The notes under the pieces were generated by a model that ran no database searches, was not told the origin of the DNA, and saw only the letters and a list, made by a program, of their open reading frames with translations. Made by a program: the position numbers and the translations under genes. Positions 2,630 through 28,363 of a DNA stretch of 36,927 bases are shown here, in pieces (positions within the stretch are counted from its first letter, which is position 1; each line of letters starts with the position of its first letter). This stretch comes from an uncultured bacterium (GTDB taxonomy: Bacteria > Joyebacterota > Joyebacteria > Joyebacterales > Joyebacteraceae): NCBI GenBank assembly GCA_964572375.1, contig CAZNHF010000002.1, forward strand, positions 1 to 36,927. The letters are read 5' to 3'.

Positions 2630-5600
2630 CTACTTCAAGAGTATCACTTTCTTGACCGATGTAGAACCCTGCGATATCAGACGGCAGAAGTACACGCCTG
2701 AGGCGACCTGCTGCCGGTCGTCACCACGGCCATCCCAGATGACATCGTGCCAGCCTAGCTCCATATCTGCGTCCACGAGCGTCCGTACACACCGGCCCGC
2801 CACATCATAGACCGACAGGGTGACATGCTGCTGAGCAGGGAGCCCGAATCGGAGCGAGGTCGTCGGATTGAACGGGTTCGGAGCGTTCTGGATGAGACAG
2901 AAGGGGATGATGTCAAGGTGCTCCTGCTCCGCGCCTTCTCCTCTGCTCGTCGGGTCGCAGGTGTCAGCCACGAGGAATGGATGCCAGTCCACGAGACCCA
3001 TGAACGAGCCGACGCTCGGGTTCGCGGTACCCCACCAGTTCGCCTCCGCCATGACAGTCGTCAGGCAGTACGGGTCGGCTCTCACACCGTAGCGGAGCCA
3101 CGTCCCGTCCACACAGTTGTAGCCGCCGTCGCCCATCGTGATCCCGAGGTTCGGAATCTCCGTCGCCGTGGCGTTCTCGATCCAGAACGCGTCCCGCACT
3201 CCGTCAATCACGTTGTTCCTCGGAATCGCTCTCGAGAGGTCAAAGTACATGCCTTTTGATGTCGGATGAAACTGCTCGACGAAAATCGTGTTCCCGGTGA
3301 CGTTGACGTCACTGTGAAGCCCTTGATCCTCGCACGCAATGCCGCTGGTCCGGGCGTTCGTGATCGTGTTCCCGGAGATCTCCAGAGTGTTCAGCTTCCT
3401 ATTGATGGTGCAGTCCAGCGAGATCCCGGAGAAGGGACCGCCGGATGCTGAAAACGGGAAACTGATCGTGTTGCCAGTGATGTCGGACTCGTAGTCGGAC
3501 ATCATGCGGATGCCGTAGCTTCCGCAGTCCGTGATCGTGTTCGAGTCGACCGTCGCATCGCACCAACCAAGGTAGAGCCCTGTCTCGGCATCCCTGATGT
3601 CGTTCCCTTGGATCAGGACATCCGCCGTGCCCTGCTGGCCGATGCACTTGATCCCGATGGCGTCGCACCCGGTAATCCTGCAATCCTGGACATGAATGCT
3701 GTCAGGCTGTTGAGCAGCGATACCGATGAAGGCATCTTCGATGATGCAGCCCACGAAGGAACTGTGGCTGCCGTAGATGGGTGTGATGCCGTACCAATCG
3801 CCCGGTGCCGGCGATGCGGCAGCAGACATGAAGCGAATGGGCGCAGTTGCGGTGTCACCGACCGCAGTGATATCGCCCTGGATGATGAGCTCGACGGCAT
3901 CTGGATCGACGCCGATCCCCTGATCGTCGTCGGTCGCCACACGCACCGTGGTTCCCGACTGGATGAGCAAGCCGGAGGAGCCGTCTACGATCACGTCACC
4001 GCTGAGAATGTAGTCACCCCACCAGGAGATGGTGGAACCCGTCGGGTACGCGCCAGACACCGGCGTCTCGTACACGCCCGTGTGACGTTCGTCGTGCTGG
4101 AACATGCTCCAACGAGATGGTTCACCGGTGAGAGGAAGCTCCCCGAGATCTAGGCAATGGAGCATGCCCACTCCATCGGCAAGCCATATCTCCAAACTGC
4201 CATCATCGTCTGTGTCGCGTACGGCCGGCGTGCCAGTTGCCATCCCCCAGAACAGGAGAGGTCTCTCTATCTCATCGAATGGCTCTAACGTGAGCGTCGA
4301 GGCCTCGAATGTGAGAACCTCGAGATGTGATGTCGTTTCCGCCTCGGCATCGAGCATCTCCTTGCGACACGAAATGGCGATGATCTCCAGATTGCCGTCC
4401 CCATCCAAGTCGGCCATTACGGGCTGCGTTGTGAACCCGCGGTCCGTGACGAACGAGTCGACAATTGACCCTGCGGAATCGATAACGTAGAGAACGCCTG
4501 CGCAGTCCTCAAGCGACTCGAGCGCGCGATACGTGGTCACCACAACCTCCGGTTCGCCGTCCGCATCCACATCACCGACGGCGACGCCCGCCGGAGCCCC
4601 AGCGAGATCGTATTTCCAGCACTCGTACCCGTGAGAACTCACGCACATCACCGTGCCTGCGGCGAACAGGACCTCGATCCCCGTTGAGTCTTCGACAACA
4701 TCGGCGGCAACAGGACTGCAGAAGAACTCGCCTACAGACTCCATAGACCAAAGCGTGGATCCGTCATCAGCAGCGTGCACCGAGATCGCCGAATCGTCGC
4801 CGCGCTGATATTGTGACGACCGATAAGAGGCGACAACCTCGCAACGGCCATCCCCCGTGATATCTACAGCGAGCGGCGCTCGCTCGAGAAACGACGCACT
4901 CACACTCGCTACCATGCAGGACACATCCCACACATCGCCGGTGCCGTCATGGTCAATGACTCGAACGCCATGCCGCGCCGGCAGGCCAGTTGTCTCCCAC
5001 TCGACGATGATCTCCAGATCACCCAGACTATCTTCTTCGCCCATGTCAGCCAGAGTGGCTGCCCCGACCAACCCTGGTACTTGGCGCGGCGACCACCCGG
5101 CGACCGCGTCTCCGTCGAGGCCGAGAGCATCCACATACCCGGTTCGCGTAAACACGATATCCTGTTCGCCATCGACGTTCAAATCGGCGATGGCGACGGG
5201 CCCGAGCAGCGCGGCTCCCGAGGGAACTGTGTAGGCCCACAGGCTCTCGGCAGAGGAAGATGAGAATGCGGCGATGTGGCCGGGGATGCGCGTGCCAGAT
5301 ACAACGTCATCCAGTCCATCTCCATCGATATCCACGAACACCGGTGCAACGCCCTCGACCCCCCACATGTCTCTCGGAAACCCGTCCCTCTCGAAATAGA
5401 CACAGACAGGGCGCTCCGCCTCGTTGTTAAGCTCGGATAGCTCGTCCTGCTCACCCTCGGGGTCGACGCGCACGCGAAGCTCGGTCCGGCCGATGTCCGA
5501 TTGGCTGGGCGTCCACTGGACGCTGGCGGTCTCCGAAGACCAGTCGCTTGGCTGCACGTCATCCCATCCGAGCGTGTCCCACTCAGCATTCTCCGGATTC

Positions 5601-7750
5601 CAGAGCAAGAAGAGCACGTCGACCGGTGTACCCGGAATGTAGTTGCTCTCGTTGCGGACCTCAATAGCGATGGATGTCGATACGCCAAACGACGGAGATG
5701 CCGGACTTAGCTCGATGTCCCGATCACGAACGATGTAGTCGGGTGCACTGGAGTAGCCTTGGGTTCCCGTGTCTGTCAGGAACAGGTCGAGGGCAGGGTC
5801 TCCGAGAAGGTTGTACATCAGATCGTGACGATACTGGGCCTCCGAATCCGTCCGCAACGACTGGAACTTCAGTTTCGCAAATGTGATGAAGTCACCGGTC
5901 CTCGTACAGCCGTGCTGATAGATCGACTCCCACACGTACATTCCGATGTCGCCCCAAACATTCGAGCAATTCTCGCTCGAACCGAAGAAACCGACTGCGC
6001 CCGTCAGACCAGCCTCTTGGTGCATCAGAGCCTCGCCGAGGCAGTCCCAAGGGCTCGCAGGAACATCGCTCGTGTACACATCGTATGCCCCTGTCCGGCA
6101 CGAGTAGTTCATCCAGAACGGGAGCTGCCCTCCGTTGTTTGTCAGCAGCGCGACATCTACCCGCTTGAAGGTGTCGCACTCGTGAGGGGCCCCGTGGGCG
6201 CACAGCTCAACCAGGTGCAGACCACCATTGATGCTGTCACGTTGTGCGGTCTGAACGCCCTGCTGCTTGATCAAGCACGTTACGCCGTCCTGCTCGACCG
6301 CATGAATCTCCGTCACAGCATGCCCGGATATCAGTGCCCGCGCCGAGTCGAATGCGGCGTATGCAGTGGCAACCTTGTTTGCGTCGGCGTCAGTGCAGAA
6401 GCCGGATGTCATGAGAATCCGATTTCTCCATTCATCCGTGGACGATGCGTCAACCTCGTAGCCGACGATCTTCTGAACCTCGCGGGCCAACTCTGTGACA
6501 TCGCTGACACACAGACGACCGATCATGAGATCCGGATGCAGGTCATCGTCTCCATCAACACACGAGTACCACAGATCGTTCGTGGCCCAGTTGGACGCAT
6601 TGACTTGTATCTCATGCGCGGGCAGCAAGCTGTCCGCGCCACCGTGGGCAGCGTCCCTGGCATCGCCGACAAGAAGCACGTACCCCAGCCTGCTGTCCTG
6701 CATGTGCTCCGCGCTCTCGGTCTCATAGAGCGACTGGATGAAGTGGCGAATCGCCACATCGCTAATCGTCGGTTGTCCGTAGTGATTCACGACAGTGGTG
6801 TCAGGCACGATGGCAACGTTGAACCCGTTGTATGTCGCCCGGTGCTCTGCCAAGCTCCCCAGGTAGGGCGACCCCATCAGTGAACCCTCGACGATCATGA
6901 GATAGTCCGTCAGACTGTCAGCGCAGGCTCCAACCGTGCGGCAGACACCCCATCTGCCCGGCCCGGCCGCCTCTCTCCAGCCAGCCGAACCAGCGCCATC
7001 GTATCCCAGTATCAGTGCCTCCGCGATCTCGCTGAACGGACCAAGGTTCTCAGACATCCCACCTGTTCCGCCAGTCAGCTCCAGCGTCACGACCATGGAT
7101 GGATAGACACGAAGCTGTGATGTCGTCGGATCAGTCTGCATGGGGTAAGCACCCAGACGCACGACCCCTTGACCCCTGAAGCTCCCAACGTCACCAATGC
7201 TCGTGGATGGGCCCGGGCAGTAACCGCTGCGCGAGTAGGCCTGTCCGTCGTAGGCAAACTCGTAGTCGATATACTCCCAACCTTCTTCGGTGTACTTCAC
7301 GACTGGTTCTTCCACCGGGTAGACGGTGCAATCGGTGAAGAGAAGAGAATCGAGCGCGACAGCGGAGACGCCAACCTCGCAACCGTTGGGGACGGCCACA
7401 AGCGTCCGCACAGCGGTGAGTGCAGGATGACCTATCTCGCCAAAGTCGAAGTAGCTGGGCAAGCTCAGACGCTTGAAGTTGATCGCGTCGTGTTCCACAG
7501 ACTCCACGAGGACTCCGGGCGTGTCGATTCTCAGCACGACGCGGCTCGCCTCGGCCGAGATCAGCTGAATCGTCGGCGCGGTTGGGGCCAGGGTGCGCCC
7601 GTCAAAGGAGACCCACCCGTCGCTCAACTCCGCCGCCTCCGCGTGCGAACCAGCGAGAGACATGAGGAAAGACGCCAAGACGATCGGGAAAACACCACGA
7701 CGGAGACACTCGATGGGAGAATCCGAACAGTGAGCGGAAGACACCATCAT
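2630..7750 (-). CDS. Giant secreted gingipain-like cysteine peptidase (family C25). Domain order: propeptide, catalytic domain, CARDB-like domain, FG-GAP/VCBS repeats, right-handed beta-helix (PbH1) repeats, T9SS/FlgD-Ig-type C-terminal sorting domain.
   Basis: The 1706-aa ORF has a signal peptide (FPIVLASFLMSLAGSHAEA).
- C25 motifs: YLMIV, GYVLLVGDA, NDLWYSCVDGDDDLHPDLMIGRL, catalytic His in ELCAHGAPHE (codon 6194-6196) and catalytic Cys in NYSCRTGAYD (codon 6098-6100).
- CARDB-like segment ending DELSELNNEAERPV.
- FG-GAP motifs: DIDGDGLDD, DVDADGEPE, DLDGDGNLE.
- PbH1-like repeats and EANWWGT.
- C-terminus: IQNAPNPFNPTTSLRFGLP...VASGVYFCRLISQGSTSVKKVILLK. Confidence 0.9.
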   Translation of the reverse strand: MMVSSAHCSDSPIECLRRGVFPIVLASFLMSLAGSHAEAAELSDGWVSFDGRTLAPTAPTIQLISAEASRVVLRIDTPGVLVESVEHDAINFKRLSLPSYFDFGEIGHPALTAVRTLVAVPNGCEVGVSAVALDSLLFTDCTVYPVEEPVVKYTEEGWEYIDYEFAYDGQAYSRSGYCPGPSTSIGDVGSFRGQGVVRLGAYPMQTDPTTSQLRVYPSMVVTLELTGGTGGMSENLGPFSEIAEALILGYDGAGSAGWREAAGPGRWGVCRTVGACADSLTDYLMIVEGSLMGSPYLGSLAEHRATYNGFNVAIVPDTTVVNHYGQPTISDVAIRHFIQSLYETESAEHMQDSRLGYVLLVGDARDAAHGGADSLLPAHEIQVNASNWATNDLWYSCVDGDDDLHPDLMIGRLCVSDVTELAREVQKIVGYEVDASSTDEWRNRILMTSGFCTDADANKVATAYAAFDSARALISGHAVTEIHAVEQDGVTCLIKQQGVQTAQRDSINGGLHLVELCAHGAPHECDTFKRVDVALLTNNGGQLPFWMNYSCRTGAYDVYTSDVPASPWDCLGEALMHQEAGLTGAVGFFGSSENCSNVWGDIGMYVWESIYQHGCTRTGDFITFAKLKFQSLRTDSEAQYRHDLMYNLLGDPALDLFLTDTGTQGYSSAPDYIVRDRDIELSPASPSFGVSTSIAIEVRNESNYIPGTPVDVLFLLWNPENAEWDTLGWDDVQPSDWSSETASVQWTPSQSDIGRTELRVRVDPEGEQDELSELNNEAERPVCVYFERDGFPRDMWGVEGVAPVFVDIDGDGLDDVVSGTRIPGHIAAFSSSSAESLWAYTVPSGAALLGPVAIADLNVDGEQDIVFTRTGYVDALGLDGDAVAGWSPRQVPGLVGAATLADMGEEDSLGDLEIIVEWETTGLPARHGVRVIDHDGTGDVWDVSCMVASVSASFLERAPLAVDITGDGRCEVVASYRSSQYQRGDDSAISVHAADDGSTLWSMESVGEFFCSPVAADVVEDSTGIEVLFAAGTVMCVSSHGYECWKYDLAGAPAGVAVGDVDADGEPEVVVTTYRALESLEDCAGVLYVIDSAGSIVDSFVTDRGFTTQPVMADLDGDGNLEIIAISCRKEMLDAEAETTSHLEVLTFEASTLTLEPFDEIERPLLFWGMATGTPAVRDTDDDGSLEIWLADGVGMLHCLDLGELPLTGEPSRWSMFQHDERHTGVYETPVSGAYPTGSTISWWGDYILSGDVIVDGSSGLLIQSGTTVRVATDDDQGIGVDPDAVELIIQGDITAVGDTATAPIRFMSAAASPAPGDWYGITPIYGSHSSFVGCIIEDAFIGIAAQQPDSIHVQDCRITGCDAIGIKCIGQQGTADVLIQGNDIRDAETGLYLGWCDATVDSNTITDCGSYGIRMMSDYESDITGNTISFPFSASGGPFSGISLDCTINRKLNTLEISGNTITNARTSGIACEDQGLHSDVNVTGNTIFVEQFHPTSKGMYFDLSRAIPRNNVIDGVRDAFWIENATATEIPNLGITMGDGGYNCVDGTWLRYGVRADPYCLTTVMAEANWWGTANPSVGSFMGLVDWHPFLVADTCDPTSRGEGAEQEHLDIIPFCLIQNAPNPFNPTTSLRFGLPAQQHVTLSVYDVAGRCVRTLVDADMELGWHDVIWDGRGDDRQQVASGVYFCRLISQGSTSVKKVILLK

Positions 7751-13039: not shown

Positions 13040-14992
13040 TCACTCCAGAAGCTTGGCCAGCTCAACTGTGATCTGTTCCGTCTGCCCGCCACGAATCACC
13101 TCGAACTCGTATAGTGTTCCGGGATCGCGCCGCAGGAGCTCGCGGATGGCGGAGAGGCCCGCAAAATACTCCGCCGGGATGCCGTTGATCGATGCGATAA
13201 CGTCACCGTCCGCAAGTCCTGCAGCGTCTGCCGGTGTTCCGGCAGCCACGTGGAGCACTTCAACCACACCGGGTTCACCCCACCATATCTGGAGACCGGA
13301 GCGGTCCAGCGGCACGTGTTTCTCGAAGTCCTCCCCGCGTTCGAAGATGACCTCCTGTCGCGCATAGTCGAGGTAGAGCACGAAGCGCCGGAACAGGGAG
13401 TTGCCCAGGTTTCCCGAGATCTCGGTCGAACCGAACGCACCGACGAGATCACCCTTAGGGATACTGATCACCGGATGCTCGATGACGAACCCGCCGACCT
13501 CAATCGAACCGAACAGATCCGCCTGCCGCGCCATCCTTCCGCCGGCGCCAAAGCCCACGCGGTCGATGCCCTCACGCTCGAGGTATCCGCGCTCGGCGGC
13601 AAACGGGTAGTGGAACGACTCACCGCTCGCGCCAAGATCGACGGTCCACCGCCCGGCGGACTCGCCGTCGACGCTCACCGGGACGGTGAACGTGTCGCCG
13701 ACAAGCGATGCGTCGACGCGAGTCCCGTCACCGGCGTACTCGAAGTACTCCGGGTCGTAGAAGGTCAGTTCCTCGCGCGCATAGTCGACGCGCGTGACGA
13801 ACCGCGAGAGGAAGTCGTAGCCGAGAATGCCGGATATATCGAGGTCGCTCGTCTTCTCAAAGAGCGGCGCGATGTCGAGGCTCACGCACTTCTGCGAGGC
13901 GAACTCGATGCCACCCACGCGGTAGCCGGGAAGCTCGACAAACGAAACCGTCACAGTGCTGCCCGCACCGATCCCCTCCATCTCGCCCACCATCTCCAGC
14001 CCGAGCTCGTTCGCGAATCGTTCATCGATACACGTCGCGCTCGCGCCGGAATCGAGGATCCATAGCCCTGTGCTGCCTTCCATCTCGACGACGACATAGA
14101 TGTGGTTCTCGTGAAAGCGCATCGGGACGATCTCAAAAGGACCACCCGATGCGAAGCGGAAGTCACGGACATCGTCAGTCGGAGGTGCGAAAAGAGCCGG
14201 GTCGAACACCGGCGCGACCTCGATCTCCGTCACCGTGAACGTCTGTGTCTGCCCGGGCGGCTCGATGAGGGTCTCCTGCGAGAACGGATAGGTAACACCA
14301 CCCACATCCCGGAAGTCACTGAAGTGCGTGGTCGAAACCACGTCGGGTGTGGTGGTGCGGCGACGGCGCTCCATGAGCGTCCCGACGTCGATACTCGTTT
14401 CAAAGACATCATCGTTGAGCGAGTTCGTGATGCGAATGATGTAGCACGCGGCGCCATCGACATCACCCTGACCCACGTACTCGGCCGAGAACACGTCCGA
14501 GTTCCGATCGAACGGCTCGTAGCCGGCGATGCGAGCCTCGACCTCGCGGCGGACGAGCGCGTTCTCGTCCTGAACGATCTGCACCTTCCCATTAGCATCA
14601 CGCTGCCACACGGTGACCCCGTCGTCGCCGCTTGTCTCCGCAAAGACGACGAGATCGACCTCCTGGCGCTGCATGCGCCCGGATCCCTGCCACGTCTCAA
14701 CGGTGCCGGTGAGACCAGCGACCGTGAGCGTGCCCTTCATGCGAACCGACTCGCGCGCGGTCAGCCGGTCCATCCCGCCGAGCGCATCCGCGTGCTGCTC
14801 GAGAATCGAATGCGGATCGACGCCATCAGCGCGTGAGGATACGACGAGCGCAACGAGGAGGAACAGGGCCGTCAGTCCGACCAGCAGCGCCAGCCGCCGG
14901 GCGTGCTCGCGTACCGGCGCTCGTCGCGCCTCCACGCTCGCCGATCCGCAGTAGATGTCGTCCGGATGTGGTCGGTGGTGGTGCCTTGCCAT
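13040..14992 (-). CDS. Membrane-anchored protease with two retropepsin-like aspartyl protease domains and a C-terminal PDZ domain
   Basis: The 650-aa ORF has an N-terminal TM anchor (LALLVGLTALFLLVALVVSS). The first aspartic motif is LWILDSGASATCID and the second is WTVDLGASGESFHY. The PDZ-like C-terminus reads VAAGTPADAAGLADGDVIASINGIP. Confidence 0.8.
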   Translation of the reverse strand: MARHHHRPHPDDIYCGSASVEARRAPVREHARRLALLVGLTALFLLVALVVSSRADGVDPHSILEQHADALGGMDRLTARESVRMKGTLTVAGLTGTVETWQGSGRMQRQEVDLVVFAETSGDDGVTVWQRDANGKVQIVQDENALVRREVEARIAGYEPFDRNSDVFSAEYVGQGDVDGAACYIIRITNSLNDDVFETSIDVGTLMERRRRTTTPDVVSTTHFSDFRDVGGVTYPFSQETLIEPPGQTQTFTVTEIEVAPVFDPALFAPPTDDVRDFRFASGGPFEIVPMRFHENHIYVVVEMEGSTGLWILDSGASATCIDERFANELGLEMVGEMEGIGAGSTVTVSFVELPGYRVGGIEFASQKCVSLDIAPLFEKTSDLDISGILGYDFLSRFVTRVDYAREELTFYDPEYFEYAGDGTRVDASLVGDTFTVPVSVDGESAGRWTVDLGASGESFHYPFAAERGYLEREGIDRVGFGAGGRMARQADLFGSIEVGGFVIEHPVISIPKGDLVGAFGSTEISGNLGNSLFRRFVLYLDYARQEVIFERGEDFEKHVPLDRSGLQIWWGEPGVVEVLHVAAGTPADAAGLADGDVIASINGIPAEYFAGLSAIRELLRRDPGTLYEFEVIRGGQTEQITVELAKLLE

Positions 14993-15061
14993 CGTGTCTC
15001 CTCATCCCTCGAAGGTCAGCGTCGTTCAGACGCGAAGCACATCACTGCCGGAGTGCCGCCG

Positions 15062-16423
15062 CTATGAACCCGCTCGCTGGGATCTGAATCGTGCCGCTGC
15101 CCGCGGCCCGGGGTGTGTCTGCGTAATGGTGCGAACGAAGTAGACGGCGTCGTAGGCGTCGCCGGGAACACACACCACGTCAACACCCTGTCCGCGCATC
15201 CGCCGCTCGCGCCCCAGCCATCTCGCCGCCGGACTCCCCTGGGGAGCCGAGCGGAGATCGAGAAGCATGAACTCCTCTCCCGACTGTGCGAGCGCGCCGC
15301 CGAAATACATCGTGTCGGTCGGCGCCACGCTCCTCGGGTCGACGCCTGCCTCCTCGGCGTACTCGCCCTGAAGATAGGTCCCGGCGATAGAGACGAGATC
15401 GTCGCCCAGACGGTCGCTCAGGTGATAGATCATGTCGACGAGCGTGCCGTCGAATGCGTCAGGCATCGTGAAGGGCGCTCGCGAGATGTGTGCGTTGTGC
15501 GCCCAGACGACGGCCTTCCGTCCGGGAAGCTGATCGTCGAGGATCCAGGTCAGGTTGTCCGCCATCGCGAGGTCGCGGATAACGCCGCCCTCTTCCCGCG
15601 ACTGCGAGCAGTAGAGGTCGTGCGCGGCCTGACCGATGTACACCTGACGTATCGCCCAGTCGAACTCCTCCGCGGAGGAGCGCCGCACGAGTTCGCTCCG
15701 TCGCGCCGCCATGTACACGGCCAGGTTCTCGTAGGCCTGCCCGATGGCCTCACGGCGCGCGTCCGTCACCGCCGCATAGCGCTCGAACGTGACCCACCAG
15801 TCTCCCTCCGCGTAGAGCGAGAGACCGAGCGAACCGGTTTCGAAGCGATCGTGGAAACCCGGATCGTTGCTCTCCATGTAGGCGAGCGCATTGACGAGTC
15901 CAAGCCTCGGCGCGGTGCAGTCGAGACCGTAGAAGCGAAGCTTCGGCTCGTGTGACGGATCGTCATTGTACGCCCGCACCCACTCCACAAGTTCCAGGAT
16001 CTCCTGCGTGTCCCACGCGAACCAGTTGGAGAGCCCTCCGAGGATGGCGGCGGGGTCACCGTCGCCTCCACGGATGTACTCGTCCACGGCCTGCGCCTGC
16101 GCCATGCCCTCCTCAAGAACGATGATCGAGAATCCCATCTCCTCAACGAGGTATCTGACCATGCGGTGCTTGAACTGGAACTGCTCGCTCGCATCGTGCC
16201 GGCTCTCACCGAGACACACTACGCGCGCGTCGCCGACGATACCCCGAAGCGGAGCAAGATCGTCTGTGTCGGCGTCGGGATCGACCGACGTGATGGGAAA
16301 ACCGTGGGAGGCGACCCAATCCGCGAAATCAGGACCGGGGCTTCCGACCGACAGATCCCAACCGACGCCGAGCGTAACGGCGACCAGCAGTGTCAGCAGG
16401 CAGAGAGCCCTGCGCTTCTTCAT
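15062..16423 (-). CDS. Secreted erythromycin esterase family (Ere/ChaN-like) protein
   Basis: The 453-aa ORF has a signal peptide (MKKRRALCLLTLLVAVTLG). Motifs: VVCLGESRHDASEQFQFKHRMVRYLVEEMGFSIIVLEEG and VVWAHNAHISR. AAGGAG lies upstream of the ATG, and the start overlaps the PP2C stop as ATGA (16420-16423). Confidence 0.8.
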   Translation of the reverse strand: MKKRRALCLLTLLVAVTLGVGWDLSVGSPGPDFADWVASHGFPITSVDPDADTDDLAPLRGIVGDARVVCLGESRHDASEQFQFKHRMVRYLVEEMGFSIIVLEEGMAQAQAVDEYIRGGDGDPAAILGGLSNWFAWDTQEILELVEWVRAYNDDPSHEPKLRFYGLDCTAPRLGLVNALAYMESNDPGFHDRFETGSLGLSLYAEGDWWVTFERYAAVTDARREAIGQAYENLAVYMAARRSELVRRSSAEEFDWAIRQVYIGQAAHDLYCSQSREEGGVIRDLAMADNLTWILDDQLPGRKAVVWAHNAHISRAPFTMPDAFDGTLVDMIYHLSDRLGDDLVSIAGTYLQGEYAEEAGVDPRSVAPTDTMYFGGALAQSGEEFMLLDLRSAPQGSPAARWLGRERRMRGQGVDVVCVPGDAYDAVYFVRTITQTHPGPRAAARFRSQRAGS

Positions 16424-17823
16424 GCTGCTCCTTCTAAGGCCAATCCCGCCGGTGCAGCCGAGGCGGGCCCTCCGAGGCGATCCGAGTCGGATACGCCTTG
16501 CGCGGCAGAGGACCCGCCAATGGCCTCTCGGGGGGAGCCCGAGCTTGAGTACGCTCTTCTGGTATTGTCAAGATCCACAGGGGCGTTCTCGTCGAAGCGC
16601 TTGACGATGACCATCGTGAGGTCATCGGCCTGCGCAGCCCCAGCGGCGAAGTCGCGAATCTCTGTATAGACGTGTTCCTCGATGTCTCGGGCGCTCTTGT
16701 GGCGATGCGCGACCAGGAGATCCTCGAGCCTCTCCTCACCGAACATCTCCTCTTCGCCGTTCATCGCCTCGGTGACGCCGTCCGTGTAGAGGACGAGATC
16801 GTCGCCCGCGCAGAGCGTGACTGCCCCCTCTTCGTACTCGATACCGGGTATAACGCCGACAACGAGCCCGCCCTTGTCGAGATACTCACGATCACCGTTC
16901 GCCCGGAGCACGCACGGCGGGTTGTGCCCGGCGTTGACGTACGTAACCACCTGCGTGCGCGTGTCCAGGACGGCGTAGAAGAACGTCACAAAGACGTTGT
17001 CCGCGGTGTACCCGTGGACGAGTGTGTTGACGCGTCCGACGAGCTGGACGGCTGGGACGCCGCTCTCCGCGAGCGCCCGCACGGCCGCCTGCACATTCGC
17101 CATGAGGATGGCCGCCGGAGTGCCCTTCCCGGAGACGTCGCCGATCGTGATCGCAAGCCTGCCGCCGTCGAGCTCGATCACGTCGTAGCAGTCACCGCCG
17201 ACGTGCTTCGCAGGGACGCTGAACCCGAAGATGTCCCAACCGGGGGGCTTCGGGAACTGCTTCGGCAGAAGCTCAGTCTGAATACGGCGTGCGATGTTCA
17301 TCTCGTGTTCGAGCTTCGACCACTCGGCAACAGCGTTCTCAACCTGCGCCCTCATCTGGTCGTACATGTACGTCATCAGTCCCACAACGAGAGCCACGGC
17401 GGCGTTGATCGTCGTCACCATGACCGCGTTTTCCATCTGGTAGAGCACGATGAGCGGGTTGACCAGGATCGCGATGCCGCTGCCGATCACTCCGCCGGCG
17501 ATCAGCATTACGATCGCGAGCGGGATGCGCACGTACGCCGGGAAACCACTGACCCGTGGCAGCACGAGCTTCACCGTGATGATGGTCGTGAACACGGCGA
17601 CATTCGCAAAGACAACGCTCATCAGGACGAGCGATCTCGCCGCGCCACCTTCGGCGCCCGAGAAGAATCTGATCGCCAGACCGATTCCGGTCCCCGCAGC
17701 GCTCGCAGCGAGAGCCCAGAGGAGCACTCCTCTGAGATTGAGTCTCCTTGATGTTCCCAGGAACGAGGTTCCGCGCGTACCTGCGTTCATTGTCCTATCC
17801 TTCCGAGATTCCGGGGAAGACAC
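16420..17823 (-). CDS. Membrane-bound SpoIIE/PP2C-type serine phosphatase with an N-terminal 4-TM sensor domain
   Basis: Four predicted TM helices are followed by a coiled linker and the PP2C motifs GGDCYDVIELDGGRLAITIGDVSGKG, LYTDGVTEA and DDLTMVIVKR. The likely start is the ATG at 17790 (MNAGTRG...), 4 nt after the stop of the upstream gene. Confidence 0.85.
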   Translation of the reverse strand: MSSPESRKDRTMNAGTRGTSFLGTSRRLNLRGVLLWALAASAAGTGIGLAIRFFSGAEGGAARSLVLMSVVFANVAVFTTIITVKLVLPRVSGFPAYVRIPLAIVMLIAGGVIGSGIAILVNPLIVLYQMENAVMVTTINAAVALVVGLMTYMYDQMRAQVENAVAEWSKLEHEMNIARRIQTELLPKQFPKPPGWDIFGFSVPAKHVGGDCYDVIELDGGRLAITIGDVSGKGTPAAILMANVQAAVRALAESGVPAVQLVGRVNTLVHGYTADNVFVTFFYAVLDTRTQVVTYVNAGHNPPCVLRANGDREYLDKGGLVVGVIPGIEYEEGAVTLCAGDDLVLYTDGVTEAMNGEEEMFGEERLEDLLVAHRHKSARDIEEHVYTEIRDFAAGAAQADDLTMVIVKRFDENAPVDLDNTRRAYSSSGSPREAIGGSSAAQGVSDSDRLGGPASAAPAGLALEGAA

Positions 17824-19255
17824 TGGGAAGAGCGTTCTCGTCCGTCGGCTCGACCGGCTCGAACGCGGCCTCGAGACGCGTCTCCTTCCGCTGCAGGAGT
17901 GCGCCGAGCCCGAAGAAGATGATCACGATGCCGATGAGCGTTCCGAGGATCGGGATCGCGGTCAGGAGATAGACGATCAGAAGACCCAGAAGCATCGGCG
18001 GGACCGGCGACTTCGTCATGATCCGCTCGCCACGCCTGAGCATCCAGCTGCCGAGCCAGATGGCGAAGTAGAACTTCGAGATGTACAGAGCGATCAGATA
18101 CGCCAGCGCGAGGATGAAGCTGAACGGGATCGTTATGATCAGCACCAGCGTGATCAGGATCACGATCGGACTGCAGATGTAGGCTACGAACCCGATCCCG
18201 AGGCTCTTCAGCGGACGCGTGCGGATCTTGTTGGCGGTCCTGCACGCGTGGTCCTTCGTGAGCGCGATGATGATGACGCCGGCTATGATGGCCGCGAAGA
18301 ACCCGAAGATGTGCATGGCCAACCCGAACAGCGGACTGAAATCGAAGTCCTTGGATATTTCATCCTTCGGCTGCATGAAGGTCACGCTGCCGTGGACGAT
18401 CCCTTCGCCGATTTCGATCCGGGACGGCCCCTGGTAGATGAGATCGCCGCCGATCTGCGCACGGTCCGCGAGAGTCAGGCCTCCGTCGGTGAGAAGCTCG
18501 GCGTTCCCGTCAATACGGCCGGTCATGGTGATCGCACCCGCGCCGATGCGCGCGCTGCCCTTCACATGCCCCTGGAGAGTCACGGTGCCGGCGCCGACGA
18601 GAAGGCTGCCGTTGATGACCGCCCCCTCCTCGATGATCACGTTCGCACCGGCAACGAGCACGTCGCCGTCCACCACGCCCGAGATGCGGATGTTCTGGGC
18701 GAAGGCGCGCACGTCGTCGCCGACCCTGCCAGTGATCGTGACGTTCTCCGCGAAGCACATCAGATCCTCTGTCACGGTGCCGTCGATCGTGAGCGACTGG
18801 CACCCGACGAAGACGTCACCGTCGAGTGTCCCCATGACACTCATGCTCTGTGTCCAGAGGTAGAGGTCGTACGGGTACGACTCGTCCGGAAGGACCTCGA
18901 AGTGCTGTGACTGCGCGATGCGCATGGTATTGGCGATCGAGACACTCGTTCCGCCGGTCGGGGTGTTCGATTCGTCGATGACGTTCATTGCTCCGTCACC
19001 GAGTGCGACGCCGTCGCCCACGGCCGGGGCAGCGAGCCCCACGAGCATGGCGACTGCGATGAGCGCCACGAACGCAGTGATGTTCCGGTCCGCCTTCATT
19101 TCCCTTCCCCCTGATGTCGGCCCTCCGGGCCGTGTGTGGTGATTCCCGGGTCCCTCGTCGGCCCTTCCGGGCGGAGGAGACTCCTGTTGTATCTCACAGT
19201 GCCTATCATATGGATAAACCGGTCCGGTTCGAAGGTGTCTCCCGCCAAGCGGCAT
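17795..19255 (-). CDS. Membrane protein with a signal/anchor, a bactofilin-like beta-helix domain and a C-terminal polytopic TM domain
   Basis: The likely start is the ATG at 19099, preceded by GGAAGGGA, giving MKADRNITAFVALIAVAMLVGLAAPAVG. There are about six 17-19-aa windings: NVTITGRVGDDVRAFAQ / NIRISGVVDGDVLVAGA / NVIIEEGAVINGSLLVGAG / TVTLQGHVKGSARIGAG / AITMTGRIDGNAELLTDG. Four or five hydrophobic helices follow. Confidence 0.75.
   Translation of the reverse strand: MPLGGRHLRTGPVYPYDRHCEIQQESPPPGRADEGPGNHHTRPGGPTSGGREMKADRNITAFVALIAVAMLVGLAAPAVGDGVALGDGAMNVIDESNTPTGGTSVSIANTMRIAQSQHFEVLPDESYPYDLYLWTQSMSVMGTLDGDVFVGCQSLTIDGTVTEDLMCFAENVTITGRVGDDVRAFAQNIRISGVVDGDVLVAGANVIIEEGAVINGSLLVGAGTVTLQGHVKGSARIGAGAITMTGRIDGNAELLTDGGLTLADRAQIGGDLIYQGPSRIEIGEGIVHGSVTFMQPKDEISKDFDFSPLFGLAMHIFGFFAAIIAGVIIIALTKDHACRTANKIRTRPLKSLGIGFVAYICSPIVILITLVLIITIPFSFILALAYLIALYISKFYFAIWLGSWMLRRGERIMTKSPVPPMLLGLLIVYLLTAIPILGTLIGIVIIFFGLGALLQRKETRLEAAFEPVEPTDENALPSVFPGISEG
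19205..19235 (-). promoter_or_regulatory. Candidate promoter plus a 13-bp palindrome upstream of the beta-helix/PP2C operon
   Basis: On the minus strand, TATGAT (19210-19205) sits 17 nt after a weak TTCGAA. The perfect palindrome AACCGGTCCGGTT (19217-19229) fills the spacer. The site lies in the 290-nt gap between the LytTR regulator gene and the next gene. Confidence 0.3.
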
Positions 19256-19389
19256 CTGTCGCGGGCGAGATGACCTGAGCCGACGGTGAACTGCAGGCGT
19301 GGGAAGGGGGGCTACGGCGTTACGTGGGCGGGCCGCGGCGGAGCCCTGTGTGCATTACGAAGGGAGTATTTCGCGGACGCGAAGCTCCG

Positions 19390-20148
19390 CTACCATGGAA
19401 GTATCTCGCGGAGCCGGCGGGCCCGCGCCCGGGACAGCACAACCTCGGTCTTCGCATCGTCACCGACGATGACCTGATACTTGCCACCGAACCACGGGAC
19501 GATCTCGACGACGTGCGCGAGGTTGACAATGCTCGAACGGTGGGTCCGAAAGAACACCTTGGCGTCGAGCCGCTGCTCGAGCTCTGCCATGGTCATGTTG
19601 ATGAGGTACTTCTCGCTCTTCGTGTGGACGAAGACGAGTTCATCGGACGCTTCGACCCAGATCACGTCGGCATGGTCCACCAGGATGATGCGCTTGCCTT
19701 TCGTGACCGGGAGACGCTTGATGCCCATCGGCTGCACGAGTTCAGCGATGCGCCCGATGGTCTCCTCGAGACCGCTCTCCCCCTGGAGCATATCGCGCGC
19801 ACGCGAAAGCGCTTCCGCGAATCGCTCCTTCGAGATCGGCTTGAGGAGATAGTCGATCGAATTGACCTCGAACGCCTTGATCGCATATTCGTCGAACGCG
19901 GTCGCGAAGATGACGAGCGGGACCTCGTCGAGCGCTTCGATGACCTCAAAACCGTTCATCCCCGGCATCTGGATATCCAGGATCACGATGTCAGGCCTGA
20001 GCCCCTTGATGTTCTCAACGGCCGCGATGCCGTTGCCGGCCTCTCCGACGCACTCGAACTCGTCGTGTCCGGCGAGCAGGTCCTTCACGCGGGCCCGTGC
20101 GAGCTCCTCGTCATCGACCACCAGCACTCTGATCCTGTCATCGCTCAC
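19390..20148 (-). CDS. LytTR-family response regulator (REC plus LytTR DNA-binding domain)
   Basis: The REC domain reads RVLVVDDEELAR...PDIVILDIQMPGMNGFEV. The LytTR domain reads LPVTKGKRIILVDHADVIWVEASDELVFVHT...FFRTHRSSIVNLAHVVEI. The GTG start overlaps the kinase stop as GTGA. Confidence 0.9.
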   Translation of the reverse strand: MSDDRIRVLVVDDEELARARVKDLLAGHDEFECVGEAGNGIAAVENIKGLRPDIVILDIQMPGMNGFEVIEALDEVPLVIFATAFDEYAIKAFEVNSIDYLLKPISKERFAEALSRARDMLQGESGLEETIGRIAELVQPMGIKRLPVTKGKRIILVDHADVIWVEASDELVFVHTKSEKYLINMTMAELEQRLDAKVFFRTHRSSIVNLAHVVEIVPWFGGKYQVIVGDDAKTEVVLSRARARRLREILPW

Positions 20149-21254
20149 GCTTCACTCCGTTCCATGGTCGTCAAGGGGATGACGAGGCGCACCGAGGTCC
20201 CCACTCCGAGCTCACTCTCGACCGTCAGCCACTCCCCCGCCCCGAAGGTGGTGCGAAGTCGGTCGCGCACGTTTCTCAGTCCGTAGCTCTCTGGCGACAG
20301 CTCGGCCAATTCCAGCTTCTCGGCGCCGACCCCGTCGTCCGAAACGAGCACGGTCAGTCTCCCGTCCTTGACCGACGCCGCGATGCGGACCACCCCGCCC
20401 TCGACCTTCGGTGATATGCCGTGACGCACGGCGTTCTCCACGATCGGCTGGAGAATGAGCGGCGGGACGCTGACGTCTCCGGCGCCCGGCGCCACCTCCT
20501 GCTCCACCCTGAGCCTGTCACCGAACCGCGCCCTTTCGACGTCGAGGTAGGCGTCCACGAGTTCGAGTTCGCTCGAGAGCAGGACGCTCCCCTTCTCGGA
20601 GGCAAGCAGCGTTTTGCGGAAGATGCTCGCCAACCTCTCGAGCGTCCCCTGCGCCGCTTCGGGGTCGATGGTCGTCAGTGCGGAAATCGAATTGAGAGCG
20701 TTGAACAGGAAGTGCGGATTGATCTGCGCCTTCAGAGCCTTGAGCTCCGAGCGCGCCGCGAGTTCGCGGAGTCGCTCCTCGCGCACGCGATTGGCGGCCA
20801 GCTCACGATAGGTCCGTTCGATCTCGTCCCTCATGCGTTCGAAATTGTAGACGATGAGGCCGACGATGACCGCGAGGAAGCTGTCGATGACGATGACGAT
20901 GGCCGCCATCCGGCCCTGGTAGAGGATGAACACGGGATCGGCGTAGATGACGAGTGCCGATCCGAACGCGCCACCCGCCAGCAGCGTCAGGACGGCGAGC
21001 GGGATGCTGACAACCGGCGGGAAGGCTGCATAGCGTGGGAGCACGAACCGCGCCGAGAGCACCGCTGCAAAGCCCACCGCGTTCGCAAACAGAATGCTCA
21101 GGCGCGTCGAGTTCGCGATGGCCGCGGTCTCCCCGGAGAAGACGCCGATGGCGAGACCCACGAGCGCCCCGGAAACGGAGAAGGCAAGCGCCCATCGTAT
21201 GAGACTCAGGACGGTCAGCCGCCCGGCCTGGGAGCGTGTCGCGTTCTGGTTCAT
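20145..21254 (-). CDS. LytS-type sensor histidine kinase (4-TM sensor, His_kinase/PF06580-type phosphoacceptor, HATPase_c)
   Basis: Motifs: QINPHFLFNALNSI, PPLILQPIVENAVRHG and GYGLRNVRDRL. There are four N-terminal TM helices. The ATG overlaps the PBP4 stop as ATGA. Confidence 0.9.
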   Translation of the reverse strand: MNQNATRSQAGRLTVLSLIRWALAFSVSGALVGLAIGVFSGETAAIANSTRLSILFANAVGFAAVLSARFVLPRYAAFPPVVSIPLAVLTLLAGGAFGSALVIYADPVFILYQGRMAAIVIVIDSFLAVIVGLIVYNFERMRDEIERTYRELAANRVREERLRELAARSELKALKAQINPHFLFNALNSISALTTIDPEAAQGTLERLASIFRKTLLASEKGSVLLSSELELVDAYLDVERARFGDRLRVEQEVAPGAGDVSVPPLILQPIVENAVRHGISPKVEGGVVRIAASVKDGRLTVLVSDDGVGAEKLELAELSPESYGLRNVRDRLRTTFGAGEWLTVESELGVGTSVRLVIPLTTMERSEA

Positions 21255-22873
21255 GAAGCCCTCTTCTGGTGCGCGTGCATCAGGATCGCGTGCTCCACAT
21301 CATGCACTTTCCATGCCTCGCACTTCGACCCGTTGGTAATGATCGAGAAAACGAGCCGCTCGCCCGATGCGGTCTCCATGACGCCCGATATCGCCGTCAC
21401 ACCGTCGAGAAGCCCTGTCTTGGCCCGGATGACGCCCCCGAGCCCGCCGTAACCCATCCGGTCGGAGAGCGTGCCGTCTGTTCCGCTCACACTGAGAGAC
21501 GCCAGGAATTCAGGGAAGGTCGCGAATTCGCTCGCGGCGCTTCTGATAACGGCCGCAATGGCCCGGGTCGTGATGCGGTTGCCGCGCGAGTACCCTGAGC
21601 CATCCGCGATCCGAATACCGGTTGTGTCGGCGCCGACAGATGCGATGTGCCTCAGCAGCGCCTTGCATCCAGCCGCGGTCGTCCCCGGCTCGCCGGTCGC
21701 CTCGGCGCCCAGCGTCTTTGCGAGCTGCTCGGCCACGAAGTTGTTGCTGTACTTGCCCATGTCGCGGACGATGAGCGAGAGCGGCTTCGATCTGTGAACG
21801 AAGAGCACACGCGCGCCCTCGGGAGCCGACCCGGGGCGCAACCCTCCGGAGAACTCGATCCCCGCCGACGCAAGAGCCGTCTCGATAGAGGCCACAAAAT
21901 TCCAGAGCGGGTCGTCGATGCTGCGGTACGCGACGACTCCCTCCCCGCCCTCGGGAATGCGTCCGCTCGTGACGATGAGGTTGTCCATCGATGGCCACTC
22001 GCCGTTGGCGCGCGGCGTCCCCATGAAGACGGACTGACGCCTGACTTCGATCGTTCCGTTCCGTCCGGGAGCGCAGGTCGTCGCGTGGTTGTCGACCCGC
22101 ACGAACCCGACGTCCGGCGAGATTATCACGGTCGCAGGGTCACCGCTCTCGGGCCCCGGGACCACGTGGACCCGCACGGTGTTGAAGTTGGCCGATAGAG
22201 CGCCCGTCCGCGCGTGGTAGGCGCGGTCGCCCTCCGCGACCTCCTCCGAGGTCGTCCACTCGCGGTCGAAGTACGAGGTGTCGAACACGAGATCGCCCTC
22301 GATGCGCTCGACGCCGAGCGTACGGAACCGTTCGGCGATCTGCCAGAGCTGCTCCGAAACGATGGAGGGATCGCCGCTCCCGTGGATGAACACGTCACCA
22401 CGCAGGACGGGAGTGATCGTCGTGGCGTTCGTTGCGAAGACGGTTTCGTACACATAGTCCGCCCCGAGCTCCGCGAGCGCGGCTGCGGCAGTGACGACCT
22501 TCATATTGGAGGCAGGTATCATCAGAGCATCGGCGTTCCGCGCGTACAGGAGATCACCGGTGTCGAGCGACTCGATGACGATGGCGATGGCGGTTCCGCG
22601 AAGATCCGGCTTCGCGAGCAGCGAATCGACGACCCAGTCGAGGCCCTCAAGCGGGGCGGAGTCGCTCCTGACGGCGGTGACGTCCGTGGAGCCGGCCTTC
22701 CCGGCGGCGTCCGCAACGACCCCATCCGACGCGGCATCCGCGCCTCCTGCATCCGACGCAGTGGCGTCCGCGCCTCCTGCGTGGAGACATACGACTGTCA
22801 GCAGGAGCACGAGCACCGTCACCAGACGGTGGCTTTTCGTGGTGAGCATCATCAGAAGCCTGTGGTTCATCAT
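21251..22873 (-). CDS. dacB: D-alanyl-D-alanine carboxypeptidase/endopeptidase, PBP4 (peptidase S13)
   Basis: The 540-aa ORF has a signal peptide. SxxK appears in PASNMKVVTAAAAL, and GSGDPS and KTG (IRAKTGLL) are present. A low-complexity GGADA/ASD segment follows the signal peptide. Confidence 0.9.
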   Translation of the reverse strand: MMNHRLLMMLTTKSHRLVTVLVLLLTVVCLHAGGADATASDAGGADAASDGVVADAAGKAGSTDVTAVRSDSAPLEGLDWVVDSLLAKPDLRGTAIAIVIESLDTGDLLYARNADALMIPASNMKVVTAAAALAELGADYVYETVFATNATTITPVLRGDVFIHGSGDPSIVSEQLWQIAERFRTLGVERIEGDLVFDTSYFDREWTTSEEVAEGDRAYHARTGALSANFNTVRVHVVPGPESGDPATVIISPDVGFVRVDNHATTCAPGRNGTIEVRRQSVFMGTPRANGEWPSMDNLIVTSGRIPEGGEGVVAYRSIDDPLWNFVASIETALASAGIEFSGGLRPGSAPEGARVLFVHRSKPLSLIVRDMGKYSNNFVAEQLAKTLGAEATGEPGTTAAGCKALLRHIASVGADTTGIRIADGSGYSRGNRITTRAIAAVIRSAASEFATFPEFLASLSVSGTDGTLSDRMGYGGLGGVIRAKTGLLDGVTAISGVMETASGERLVFSIITNGSKCEAWKVHDVEHAILMHAHQKRAS

Positions 22874-22897: not shown

Positions 22898-23458
22898 TCA
22901 GACGTCGCGGACGTCCGGGCCTTCGGTTCTGTTGAGCACGGCCGTGACCGAACTCCTGAAGTCATCCATATCGACGGCAAGCCCCGGACACTCCTTGCGC
23001 TGCACGCACTCTCCGTTCTCGATGACATAGCCTGTGCCTTCGAGTTCGCGATGGCCGAGCACGCGGTCCGGCGTAAGCCCGAGTTCGCGCACGAGACGTG
23101 CGCAGAGCTCGGCCGCGGCTCTGAGCTGCCCGCGCGGCGGCGGCTCGTCGCATGCGTCGTACGCCATGCAGACGCCGATCGACCGGTCGTTCCAGGGGCC
23201 GACGTGCCACGAACGGATGCCGGGTGGCAAGCAGCGGTACATGAGCCCATCGGGCTCAATGAAGTAGGCGTACGCGATGGTCGGACATCCGGTTTCACAA
23301 ATGTGGTTCGGCCCGGTGTGGTAGCGTGCGGTCTCCCACACGTTCCAACCGGACATCGCGGTACAGTGAAGCACCACCGTATCGATCCCGTCAGGATCCC
23401 GCGTCTCGGGCTCCCCGTTCACGGGGAGGACGGGCGTGATGTCGTGAAGCCACCGCAT
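22898..23458 (-). CDS. ampD: N-acetylmuramoyl-L-alanine amidase (amidase_2/PGRP fold), AmpD-like
   Basis: The protein is 186 aa with no signal peptide. Motifs: IDTVVLHCTA, HVGPWNDRSIGV and VLGHRELEGTG. The ATG directly abuts the stop of the upstream HAD gene. Confidence 0.75.
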   Translation of the reverse strand: MRWLHDITPVLPVNGEPETRDPDGIDTVVLHCTAMSGWNVWETARYHTGPNHICETGCPTIAYAYFIEPDGLMYRCLPPGIRSWHVGPWNDRSIGVCMAYDACDEPPPRGQLRAAAELCARLVRELGLTPDRVLGHRELEGTGYVIENGECVQRKECPGLAVDMDDFRSSVTAVLNRTEGPDVRDV

Positions 23459-28089: not shown

Positions 28090-28363
28090 TTGTTGTACCA
28101 CATCTGGAGACAGAGTGCCGCTGCTGAAGGCCTCGGCATCACCGCCTCCGGTGCCGGCGGCCGGTACCCCAGTGAGCTGTGTGGCCGCACCTGGTTGTAC
28201 TCCCTCCGCATGCCTCGATCACAACTCGTGCTTCCTGAAGACTCGTGAAGAGCTCTCCGATGATGAGCGCCGTCAGGGCCGCCGCGTCTTCCGCAACCTT
28301 CCGCTCGTACCGCTGCGTCGAGCGTGATTGGTCCAGCACCCGGCATGCGCGGCGTTCGCTCAC
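28090..28363 (-). pseudogene. Decayed IS3-family transposase (orfB) remnant with an internal deletion and a frameshift
   Basis: One frame (28363 downward) reads SERRACRVLDQSRSTQRY...AEDAAALTALI, joined directly to ELFTSLQEARVVIEA. A second frame then continues RREYNQVRPHSSLGYRPPAPEAV (28208-28140). The N-terminal and C-terminal signatures of IS3 OrfB are both present, but the DDE core is missing. Boundaries are approximate and I identified no inverted repeats. Confidence 0.7.

Follow-up and report, generated by a model that had tools for sequence, protein, structure and literature searches.

A four-helix membrane module shared by a LytS-type histidine kinase and a SpoIIE-type phosphatase within one gene cassette of uncultured bacteria

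Sensory domains that occur on both histidine kinases and PPM phosphatases are established, and coiled-coil linkers let the same domains control both kinds of enzyme (PMC12143880, PMC3183031), but how one kind of sensory domain does so is an open mechanistic question (PMC12143880). The published examples are soluble domains, with their outputs in different organisms or operons. The locus described here lies on contig CAZNHF010000002.1 (GenBank assembly GCA_964572375.1; positions 1 to 36,927, hereafter the window), from an uncultured bacterium that GTDB places in the Joyebacterota. It carries a membrane-embedded counterpart of these domains, a module of four transmembrane (TM) helices, here called TM4, on both a LytS-type histidine kinase and a SpoIIE/RsbU-type PPM phosphatase of one conserved operon. 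As in the published cases, one input domain is joined to each enzyme by a helical, probably coiled-coil, linker; in contrast to them, no partner-switching components are linked to the operon. The genes for a LytTR response regulator and for a beta-helix membrane protein complete the set (Table 1).

Each part of the cassette has described relatives. The kinase resembles those of the LytSR, BtsSR and YpdAB systems in its PF06580 and HATPase_c core, in its REC-LytTR partner, and in the presence of direct repeats at 21-nucleotide (nt) spacing (PMC2766830). It differs from them in having neither a 5TMR-LYT nor a GAF domain, the four TM helices being directly joined to the kinase, and in that a paralogous sensor is also found on the phosphatase of the same cassette. 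The phosphatase shares with SpoIIE and SiaA a multi-TM N-terminus followed by a PF07228 domain with intact metal-binding motifs, but its TM region is unrelated to theirs (four TM helices versus ten in SpoIIE, and no HAMP domain as in SiaA), and there are no SiaBCD, SpoIIAA/AB or RsbV/W genes near the cassettes. With LiaFSR, VraTSR and BceRS-AB the locus has in common a kinase without an extracytoplasmic input domain, an adjacent membrane protein that is the likely true sensor or modulator, and an accessory gene that is apparently autoregulated; the dependence of such kinases on LiaF or BceAB provides a model for the role of the beta-helix protein. Unlike those systems, the transducer here has four TM helices rather than two, and the same transducer is found on a second output, a PPM phosphatase. 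Toastrack proteins, which are also of beta-helix type, are known to partner two-component systems and LytTR systems (PMC11237479). Together with LiaF they are the nearest conceptual precedent for the beta-helix protein, although they are predicted to be intracellular and to follow the TM region, whereas here the beta-helix precedes the TM domain and is predicted to be periplasmic. The protein also matches Bactofilin and PF26514, and not the Toastrack models DUF4097, DUF2154 and DUF2807. No description of the TM4 domain, of its presence on both outputs of one operon, or of a linked periplasmic bactofilin-like protein was found in Pfam, NCBIfam or the literature searched.

A first-pass annotation, made from the sequence of the window, had proposed that the N-terminal membrane regions of the phosphatase and the kinase are homologous, and both alignment and shuffling tests agree. 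BLASTP with compositional adjustment aligned residues 27-189 of the phosphatase with residues 12-177 of the kinase (167 amino acids (aa), 37% identity, 59% positives, 5 gap positions, E=5e-31). When the two 140-aa TM regions were compared by the Smith-Waterman method, the score was 281, as against 45 for the reversed sequence, 40 +/- 7 for whole-sequence shuffles (z=33), and 56 +/- 12 for shuffles inside 10-residue blocks (z=19, maximum 114 in 2000), which preserve the composition of TM segments and loops. Because the shuffled and reversed sequences score so much lower, the similarity reflects homology and not a common hydrophobic composition. The modules align helix by helix, and all four peptide strings quoted in support of the proposal were found in the translations of the two genes, which lie on the minus strand where they had been placed. 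That the module has no name, and that it is not 5TMR-LYT, was likewise confirmed. The N-terminal ~150 residues of either protein have no Pfam or NCBIfam match, even at E<=10; there is no match to PF07694; and hhalign of a 24-sequence TM4 profile against full-length E. coli BtsS returned a probability of 0.14%. A fold search of the PDB with the TM4 model also gave no significant match, and with none from Pfam/NCBIfam, BtsS or PDB folds, kinship with known TM domains was rejected. The only PDB sequence-profile matches, to Fluc/CrcB (E=0.19-0.5), place the second and third helices on the first and second of Fluc, out of register, and were rejected as chance.

Hydropathy and the positive-inside rule give the module an N-in, C-in topology with four TM helices. 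The loops are only 1-10 residues long, the external ones about 8-10 by hydropathy, and they are short also in the AlphaFold2 model of the phosphatase, which consists of four helices, the fourth running on for ~60 residues into the phosphatase domain. Conserved positions in the 24-sequence alignment are spread over the whole module: Trp and Gly in the first helix, S-[VI]-L-F-[AG]-[NE]-V-V-G-F in the second, F-P-R ... L-P ... R in the cytoplasmic loop, L-T-L-x-x-G-x-x-F-G-S in the third helix with P-[LF]-F at the outer turn, Asn or Asp in the fourth helix and, directly past the membrane, Y-[ED]-x-M-R-x-Q-[IL]-E.

TM4 is a rare domain, and is restricted to His_kinase or SpoIIE outputs. Word-indexed searches, with the module alone or as the 24-sequence profile, returned two proteins each, since hydrophobic words flood the candidate lists, and an exhaustive search with a profile hidden Markov model was used instead. 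Among 1.84 billion cluster representatives this found 49 TM4 proteins at E<=1e-3, with His_kinase on 9, HATPase_c on 7 and SpoIIE on 8; the remainder are fragments. Some database proteins, P0008 among them, read as a fusion of a SpoIIE C-terminus, TM4 and His_kinase, probably through errors of gene calling or frameshifts and not through true fusion. When genomes were scanned, one for each GTDB species, with a 6-sequence alignment as the seed (the 24-sequence alignment was too divergent for this), 46 loci were found, which were annotated by comparison with the window proteins; the seed pattern demands Asn in the second helix, so that stand-alone copies with Glu there would escape. The closest loci (~90% identity) and most of the others are from metagenome-assembled genomes labelled Candidatus Eisenbacteria or unclassified 'bacterium', and the window is almost certainly of the Eisenbacteria too. 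Other loci carry the labels Acidobacteriota, Terriglobia, Polarisedimenticolia, Cryosericum and Gemmatimonadota, and one short contig is labelled Dongiaceae.

In 30 of the 31 adequately covered loci the TM4-kinase, the LytTR regulator, the beta-helix membrane protein and the TM4-phosphatase are all encoded, and this four-gene set is a conserved unit. The co-localisation of the two TM4 genes seen in the window is therefore kept in relatives of several phyla, and this despite a shuffled gene order. In Eisenbacteria the order is kinase, regulator, beta-helix protein, phosphatase (complete on 18 contigs, with 12 truncated contigs in agreement), within a syntenic block that reads NagZ, MatE, PfkB, HAD, AmpD, PBP4, the cassette, an esterase-like gene in some cases, a protease-PDZ gene, and onward. 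The second order, phosphatase, kinase, regulator, beta-helix protein, is complete on 12 contigs of Acidobacteriota, Polarisedimenticolia or Cryosericum, and three truncated contigs agree with it. The flanks of these Acidobacteriota-type cassettes are unrelated (PolX, HhH-GPD glycosylase, methyltransferase, LON-domain protein, EamA, LOG). Since the pairing of the TM4 genes survives both rearrangement and a change of flanks, synteny by descent does not explain it. The sole exception is the Gemmatimonadota chromosome CP070758.1 (L035), which has a TM4-kinase and a LytTR regulator only; the beta-helix protein accompanies every other cassette. In seven Acidobacteriota-type loci (L034, L037, L042, L043, L044, L046 and L047) the phosphatase and kinase genes abut or overlap.

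The gene context noted in the first-pass annotation, namely the LytTR, PBP4, AmpD-like and recycling genes and a beta-helix gene between the two TM4 genes, is present as described, but a cell-wall cue did not hold up as a general reading. The PBP4/AmpD pair is syntenic in all Eisenbacteria loci. PBP4, AmpD, NagZ and the like are syntenic in that group only, and because they are absent from the Acidobacteriota-type cassettes, the cue cannot be generalised and a general tie of the cassette to peptidoglycan recycling was rejected.

The paralogous modules have diverged to different degrees. Kinase and phosphatase copies within Eisenbacteria share a mean identity of 45%, as against means of 30-34% in cross-phylum comparisons and also between kinase and phosphatase copies of the Acidobacteriota-type clade. 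In a neighbour-joining tree the modules cluster by lineage and not by output, which may reflect separate duplications, later homogenisation or co-evolution. The motif of the second helix has Asn in both copies in Eisenbacteria, while the Acidobacteriota-type clade has Glu in its phosphatase copy (FAEVVGF) and Asn in its kinase copy (FGNVVGF). An acidic residue embedded in the membrane in one paralogue may mark a functional difference.

Past the membrane, both enzymes continue through a helical linker of nearly fixed length. The kinase consists of the N-terminal four-helix module, a 43-residue linker and a His_kinase plus HATPase_c core of the LytS/YehU type, which scores 88.9 bits against PF06580 (cutoff 25.2) and 36.6 bits against PF02518 (cutoff 26.4); its catalytic core is 38% identical to that of E. 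coli BtsS over 201 aa (E=2e-35). The NPHF histidine motif is found in all 36 kinase orthologues, and in all 36, across phyla, exactly 43 residues separate the YExMR Tyr from the phospho-accepting His. A LytTR regulator is encoded next after the TM4-kinase in every locus whose contig reaches beyond the kinase gene. With its TM-only input, very short loops and lack of any further Pfam domain, the kinase fits the intramembrane-sensing type. The phosphatase is similarly built of the four-helix module, a 24-residue helical linker and a SpoIIE/RsbU-type PPM domain (PF07228, 181 bits, model positions 1-191 of 192). The corresponding stretch of the phosphatase, between the YExMR Tyr and the A-R-[DE]-[IV]-Q helix that opens the PPM domain, measures 24 residues in 17 proteins and 27 in another 10, and among the examples displayed the shorter linker is that of Eisenbacteria and the longer that of the other clade. 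Besides TM4, neither enzyme has an input domain that Pfam recognises. Fixed helical linkers such as these are a prediction of the coiled-coil transduction model (PMC12143880).

The TM4-phosphatase is predicted from its sequence to be catalytically active, since all 27 orthologues tested have kept the metal-binding motifs GGDxYD, DVSGKG, AGH and TDG, and 24 of them DDxT as well. Its NCBIfam similarities, to SpoIIE, RssB and SiaA, are weak and all far under the cut-offs. Characterised phosphatases of the SpoIIE/RsbU family act on STAS-type or similar small partner proteins. In the window, neither the called genes nor the intergenic gaps and open reading frames (ORFs) encode a STAS or anti-sigma partner, just as the first-pass annotation had reported, and in the searched flanks of the 45 related cassettes or cassette fragments no STAS protein or HATPase_c_2 anti-sigma kinase adjoins the genes. 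The same annotation had given Ser/Thr partner switching as the output of the phosphatase; this was assumed from family precedent, and it finds no backing in partner genes in the window or in the neighbourhoods of the 45 loci. To judge from the characterised enzymes, a phospho-STAS-type protein with its gene elsewhere is the most likely substrate. PADLOC assigned the cassette proteins to no defence system.

The beta-helix protein is, on its predicted topology, the only member of the cassette with a sizeable extracytoplasmic domain. It begins with a signal or anchor helix, continues with an acidic beta-helix of ~190 residues, and ends in a domain of four to five TM helices. Its match to Bactofilin (PF04519, DUF583) reaches 32-35 bits (cutoff 27.9), and in the window scans Bactofilin and FapA were the only families matched, even at E<=10. 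Its 254 homologue clusters carry precomputed PF26514 and PF04519 annotations, with PF26514.1 on every listed homologue (P0052-P0171); the Pfam copy used for the window scans did not include PF26514, which comes from the precomputed annotation only. An AlphaFold2 model built from 114 sequences (mean predicted local distance difference test score (pLDDT) 83.7) shows a hydrophobic helix at the N-terminus, strands over residues 52-242 and helices at 255-280, 296-319, 321-353, 366-380 and 385-402. The beta-helix region has 30 D/E versus 11 K/R residues, and K/R are frequent in the loops that follow TM helices one and three; because of the acidic beta-helix and, by the positive-inside rule, these loops, the beta-helix domain is predicted to be periplasmic. 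Such a placement would argue against the role of a classical bactofilin, a cytoplasmic, polymer-forming cytoskeletal protein. Comparison by Foldseek with the bactofilins 6rib and 2n3d gave template-modelling scores of 0.57-0.64 on the target with non-significant E-values, and the PDB fold search returned generic beta-helices only, none of them significant. The TM domain is homologous across phyla and has a conserved T-I-P turn. A possible phospho-acceptor site in the cytoplasmic Thr-rich loop, TKDHAxRT, is invariant in Eisenbacteria and unconserved in the Acidobacteriota orthologues, and was not upheld as a general trait. Because TM4 itself has almost no extracytoplasmic loop, the beta-helix protein, which the first-pass annotation had mentioned only as lying between the two genes, is the likelier primary sensor.

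LytTR regulators bind repeats of ~9 bp that are 12 bp apart (PMC2766830). In the 290-nt gap between the regulator and beta-helix genes there are three imperfect direct repeats at 21-nt spacing with the consensus C-[AG]-N-Y-T-[CG]-R-C: CAGTTCACCGT (19293-19283), CATCTCGCCCG (19272-19262) and CGCTTGGCGGG (19251-19241). Against a weight matrix made from the clearest orthologous sites, the triplet scores 18.8 bits, versus -5.0 +/- 4.7 for shuffled sequences, of which 0 of 200 reach this value. It is the top score in the whole window, and virtually the sole triplet of at least 15 bits in 629 kb of loci. An equivalent triplet is found at the same position in 24 of 24 Eisenbacteria loci, including loci outside the matrix training, with at most 1 of 200 shuffles reaching the observed score. 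A promoter-like element, read by eye, begins 7 nt downstream of the third repeat (TTCGAA at 19233-19228, a 17-nt spacer, TATGAT at 19210-19205), and most orthologous intergenic regions show, also by eye, a TAnnAT-like element followed by GCAC(C/T)GTG(G/A)G; a generic sigma-70 scan did not call the element at 19205-19233. This architecture, a ~21-bp periodicity just upstream of a -35-like hexamer, is that of a LytTR promoter, and the repeats are candidate sites. The arrangement suggests that the kinase/regulator pair activates the beta-helix and phosphatase genes, the kinase arm inducing the phosphatase arm.

The only other triplet of at least 12 bits in the window consists of CGTTTCACCCT and, 21 nt on, CGGCTCACACA, followed by a similar -10 region, CATCATGTAGGCTCAGTGTGAG. 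It sits in the gap upstream of a string of DUF7544, MurQ-like, isoaspartyl-peptidase, AnmK and NagZ genes, and may tie the regulator to muropeptide recycling.

The favoured reading, which is given an even chance of being right, is that of two almost loop-less TM4 transducers with fixed helical linkers, two outputs, and the beta-helix protein as a likely co-sensor. The two paralogues would be intramembrane transducers and not ligand-binding sensors, each continuing unbroken into a helical linker of fixed length; in the kinase the linker would lead to the phospho-accepting His and thence to the LytTR regulator, and in the phosphatase to the regulatory helix of the PPM domain. The beta-helix protein would be the primary sensor or a co-sensor, whose state both TM4 modules would read via intramembrane contacts. 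It is plausible that both read the same input, with the beta-helix protein presumably supplying it. In Eisenbacteria the phosphorylated regulator, which would bind the repeats, would probably activate, as a feedback, the promoter that immediately precedes the beta-helix and phosphatase genes, and the phosphatase arm would thereby be induced by the kinase arm. A stronger version, in which the two TM4 paralogues join the membrane part of the beta-helix protein in one hetero-oligomeric receptor, so that one periplasmic sensor controls both chemistries and the kinase arm induces the phosphatase arm, is tentative and rather doubtful. Several points weigh against the favoured reading. The contact between TM4 and the beta-helix protein and the common input of the two paralogues are drawn from gene linkage and sequence, and the within-locus identity of 27-51% leaves room for diverged specificity. 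The AlphaFold2 model of TM4, from four sequences, is only moderately confident (pLDDT 69.7), and no cassette encodes a substrate for the phosphatase. Repeat sites were not seen upstream of the non-Eisenbacteria cassettes. On the Gemmatimonadota chromosome, the 10 kb to each side encode neither a beta-helix protein nor a TM4-phosphatase, which implies that the kinase module can function without both.

This last locus is also what would be expected if TM4 itself senses a membrane property or a molecule embedded among the lipids (bilayer stress, for instance, or a lipid-linked precursor of the cell wall, a proton or an ion) by means of its conserved intramembrane polar residues, the beta-helix protein then being a regulated output or an unrelated envelope protein. 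The polar positions (Asn/Glu in the second helix, Asn/Asp in the fourth, G-x-x-x-G-S in the third) and the exchange of Asn for Glu between the kinase and phosphatase copies of the Acidobacteriota-type clade fit such a sensor, as does the place of the Eisenbacteria beta-helix gene, downstream of a candidate regulator-dependent promoter like an output gene. However, autoregulated accessory sensors such as LiaF are input and output alike, the presence of the beta-helix gene with both TM4 genes in 30 of 31 loci, despite reordering and unrelated flanks, would be difficult to account for in a gene that is only a target, and the sequence points to no ligand or property; the proposal is possible but somewhat unlikely. 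A different role for the second enzyme would be that the TM4-phosphatase mainly regulates the two-component pathway, as negative feedback once it is induced, either through mixed TM4 dimers with the kinase or competition for a membrane partner, or by dephosphorylating Ser/Thr residues of the kinase, the regulator or the beta-helix protein. This would account for two genes that are always together and often translationally coupled (adjacent or overlapping in Acidobacteriota-type loci), for the candidate LytTR-dependent promoter ahead of the phosphatase gene, and for the lack of an external substrate gene linked to the cassette; the 45% identity of the Eisenbacteria modules, versus 31-33% to their counterparts in other phyla, fits co-evolution or homogenisation of partners. 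It is nevertheless judged unlikely, as the known enzymes of the family have small STAS-type or similar partners, the Acidobacteriota-type paralogues resemble each other no more than they resemble any other module, and no conserved Ser/Thr site was found, the Thr-rich loop of the beta-helix protein being unconserved in the Acidobacteriota orthologues. That TM4 is a mere anchor or dimerisation module, the enzymes being regulated otherwise and the duplication kept by synteny, is very improbable. TM4 does lack an extracytoplasmic part, and neither fold nor profile searches link it to a characterised sensor, but neither enzyme has another input domain, the conserved motifs reach through the juxtamembrane YExMRxQIE helix, the linker lengths are invariant across phyla, as expected for mechanical transmission of a signal, and the gene pairing outlasts rearrangement in unrelated contexts.

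Whichever protein receives the input, the cassette offers a matched pair made by nature, in which both enzyme types, in one cell and one operon, bear the same small domain in the membrane and the same juxtamembrane motif. This opens the way to direct comparison and to domain swaps, within the limit that the organisms carrying it are uncultured. The cassette defines a TM signalling domain that had no name and, in little-known phyla (Eisenbacteria, classes of Acidobacteriota, Cryosericota), a conserved module of four genes. The membrane-anchored, apparently periplasmic, bactofilin-like beta-helix protein is a candidate for a new class of accessory envelope sensor. If the hetero-oligomeric receptor proved to be real, it would amount to a type of circuit not described before, with feedback between two chemistries built in.

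Table 1. Features of the TM4 locus and its surroundings (positions are those of the window)
Feature	Position	Strand	Evidence
PBP4-type D-Ala-D-Ala carboxypeptidase (Peptidase_S13)	21251-22873	minus	Pfam PF02113, 4e-97
AmpD-like amidase (Amidase_2)	22898-23458	minus	Pfam PF01510, 1.6e-24
TM4-kinase, 369 aa	20145-21254	minus	PF06580 2.6e-25 and PF02518 6.9e-09
TM4 module of the kinase, residues 10-152	20799-21227	minus	alignment and hydropathy
Response regulator, REC and LytTR, 252 aa	19390-20148	minus	PF00072 6.8e-23, PF04397 1.3e-27
Three direct repeats, candidate LytTR binding sites	19241-19293	minus	18.8-bit triplet
Promoter-like element	19205-19233	minus	by-eye reading of the sequence
Beta-helix membrane protein, 434 aa from ATG at 19099	17795-19099	minus	Bactofilin match, AlphaFold2
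TM4-phosphatase, 456 aa from ATG at 17790	16420-17790	minus	PF07228 3.2e-53, full model
TM4 module of the phosphatase, residues 25-168 of the 467-aa ORF	17320-17751	minus	alignment, AlphaFold2
Erythromycin-esterase-family protein	15062-16423	minus	Pfam
Aspartyl-protease and PDZ protein	13040-14992	minus	Pfam
Second, weaker repeat triplet	34539-34581	minus	15.5 bits

All genes of the locus are on the minus strand and closely packed (13040-22873), and NagZ, AnmK and MurQ-like genes lie farther along the window, beyond the PBP4/AmpD-like pair. The start of the TM4-kinase gene overlaps the PBP4 stop by 4 nt, the two genes being translationally coupled, and its stop overlaps the start of the regulator gene by the same distance. 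The mechanically called ORF of the beta-helix protein (17795-19255) is 52 codons too long, its extension running into the promoter and repeat region; the start in Table 1 is preceded by a strong ribosome-binding site, GGGGGAAGGGAA. For the phosphatase the mechanical ORF (16420-17823) begins at a GTG, and the ATG at 17790, 4 nt past the stop of the beta-helix gene, is preferred from the N-termini of orthologues and is most likely the true start.

There is a 4-nt overlap between the phosphatase stop and the next gene, and the esterase-family and protease-PDZ genes are probably co-transcribed with it. The esterase-like gene is found only in the window and its closest relatives (L004, L005, L014 and L028), the other Eisenbacteria loci being without it, and seems to have been inserted recently into the operon. 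Downstream of the phosphatase, directly or past the esterase-like gene, most Eisenbacteria loci have the protease-PDZ gene, L007 and L017 being exceptions.

Elsewhere in the window, a giant protein of 1706 aa (2630-7750, minus strand) combines a Peptidase_C25 propeptide and catalytic domain with FG-GAP repeats and a right-handed beta-helix. Its C-terminal match to Por_Secre_tail is weak (21.4 bits, under the cutoff of 27 bits). The protein is probably a cargo of type IX secretion, in keeping with an FCB-group organism. A 74-codon intergenic ORF (28139-28363, minus strand) encodes a peptide containing RRACRVLDQSRSTQRYERK, which by eye is like the N-terminus of IS3-family transposases, and may be the remnant of an insertion sequence.

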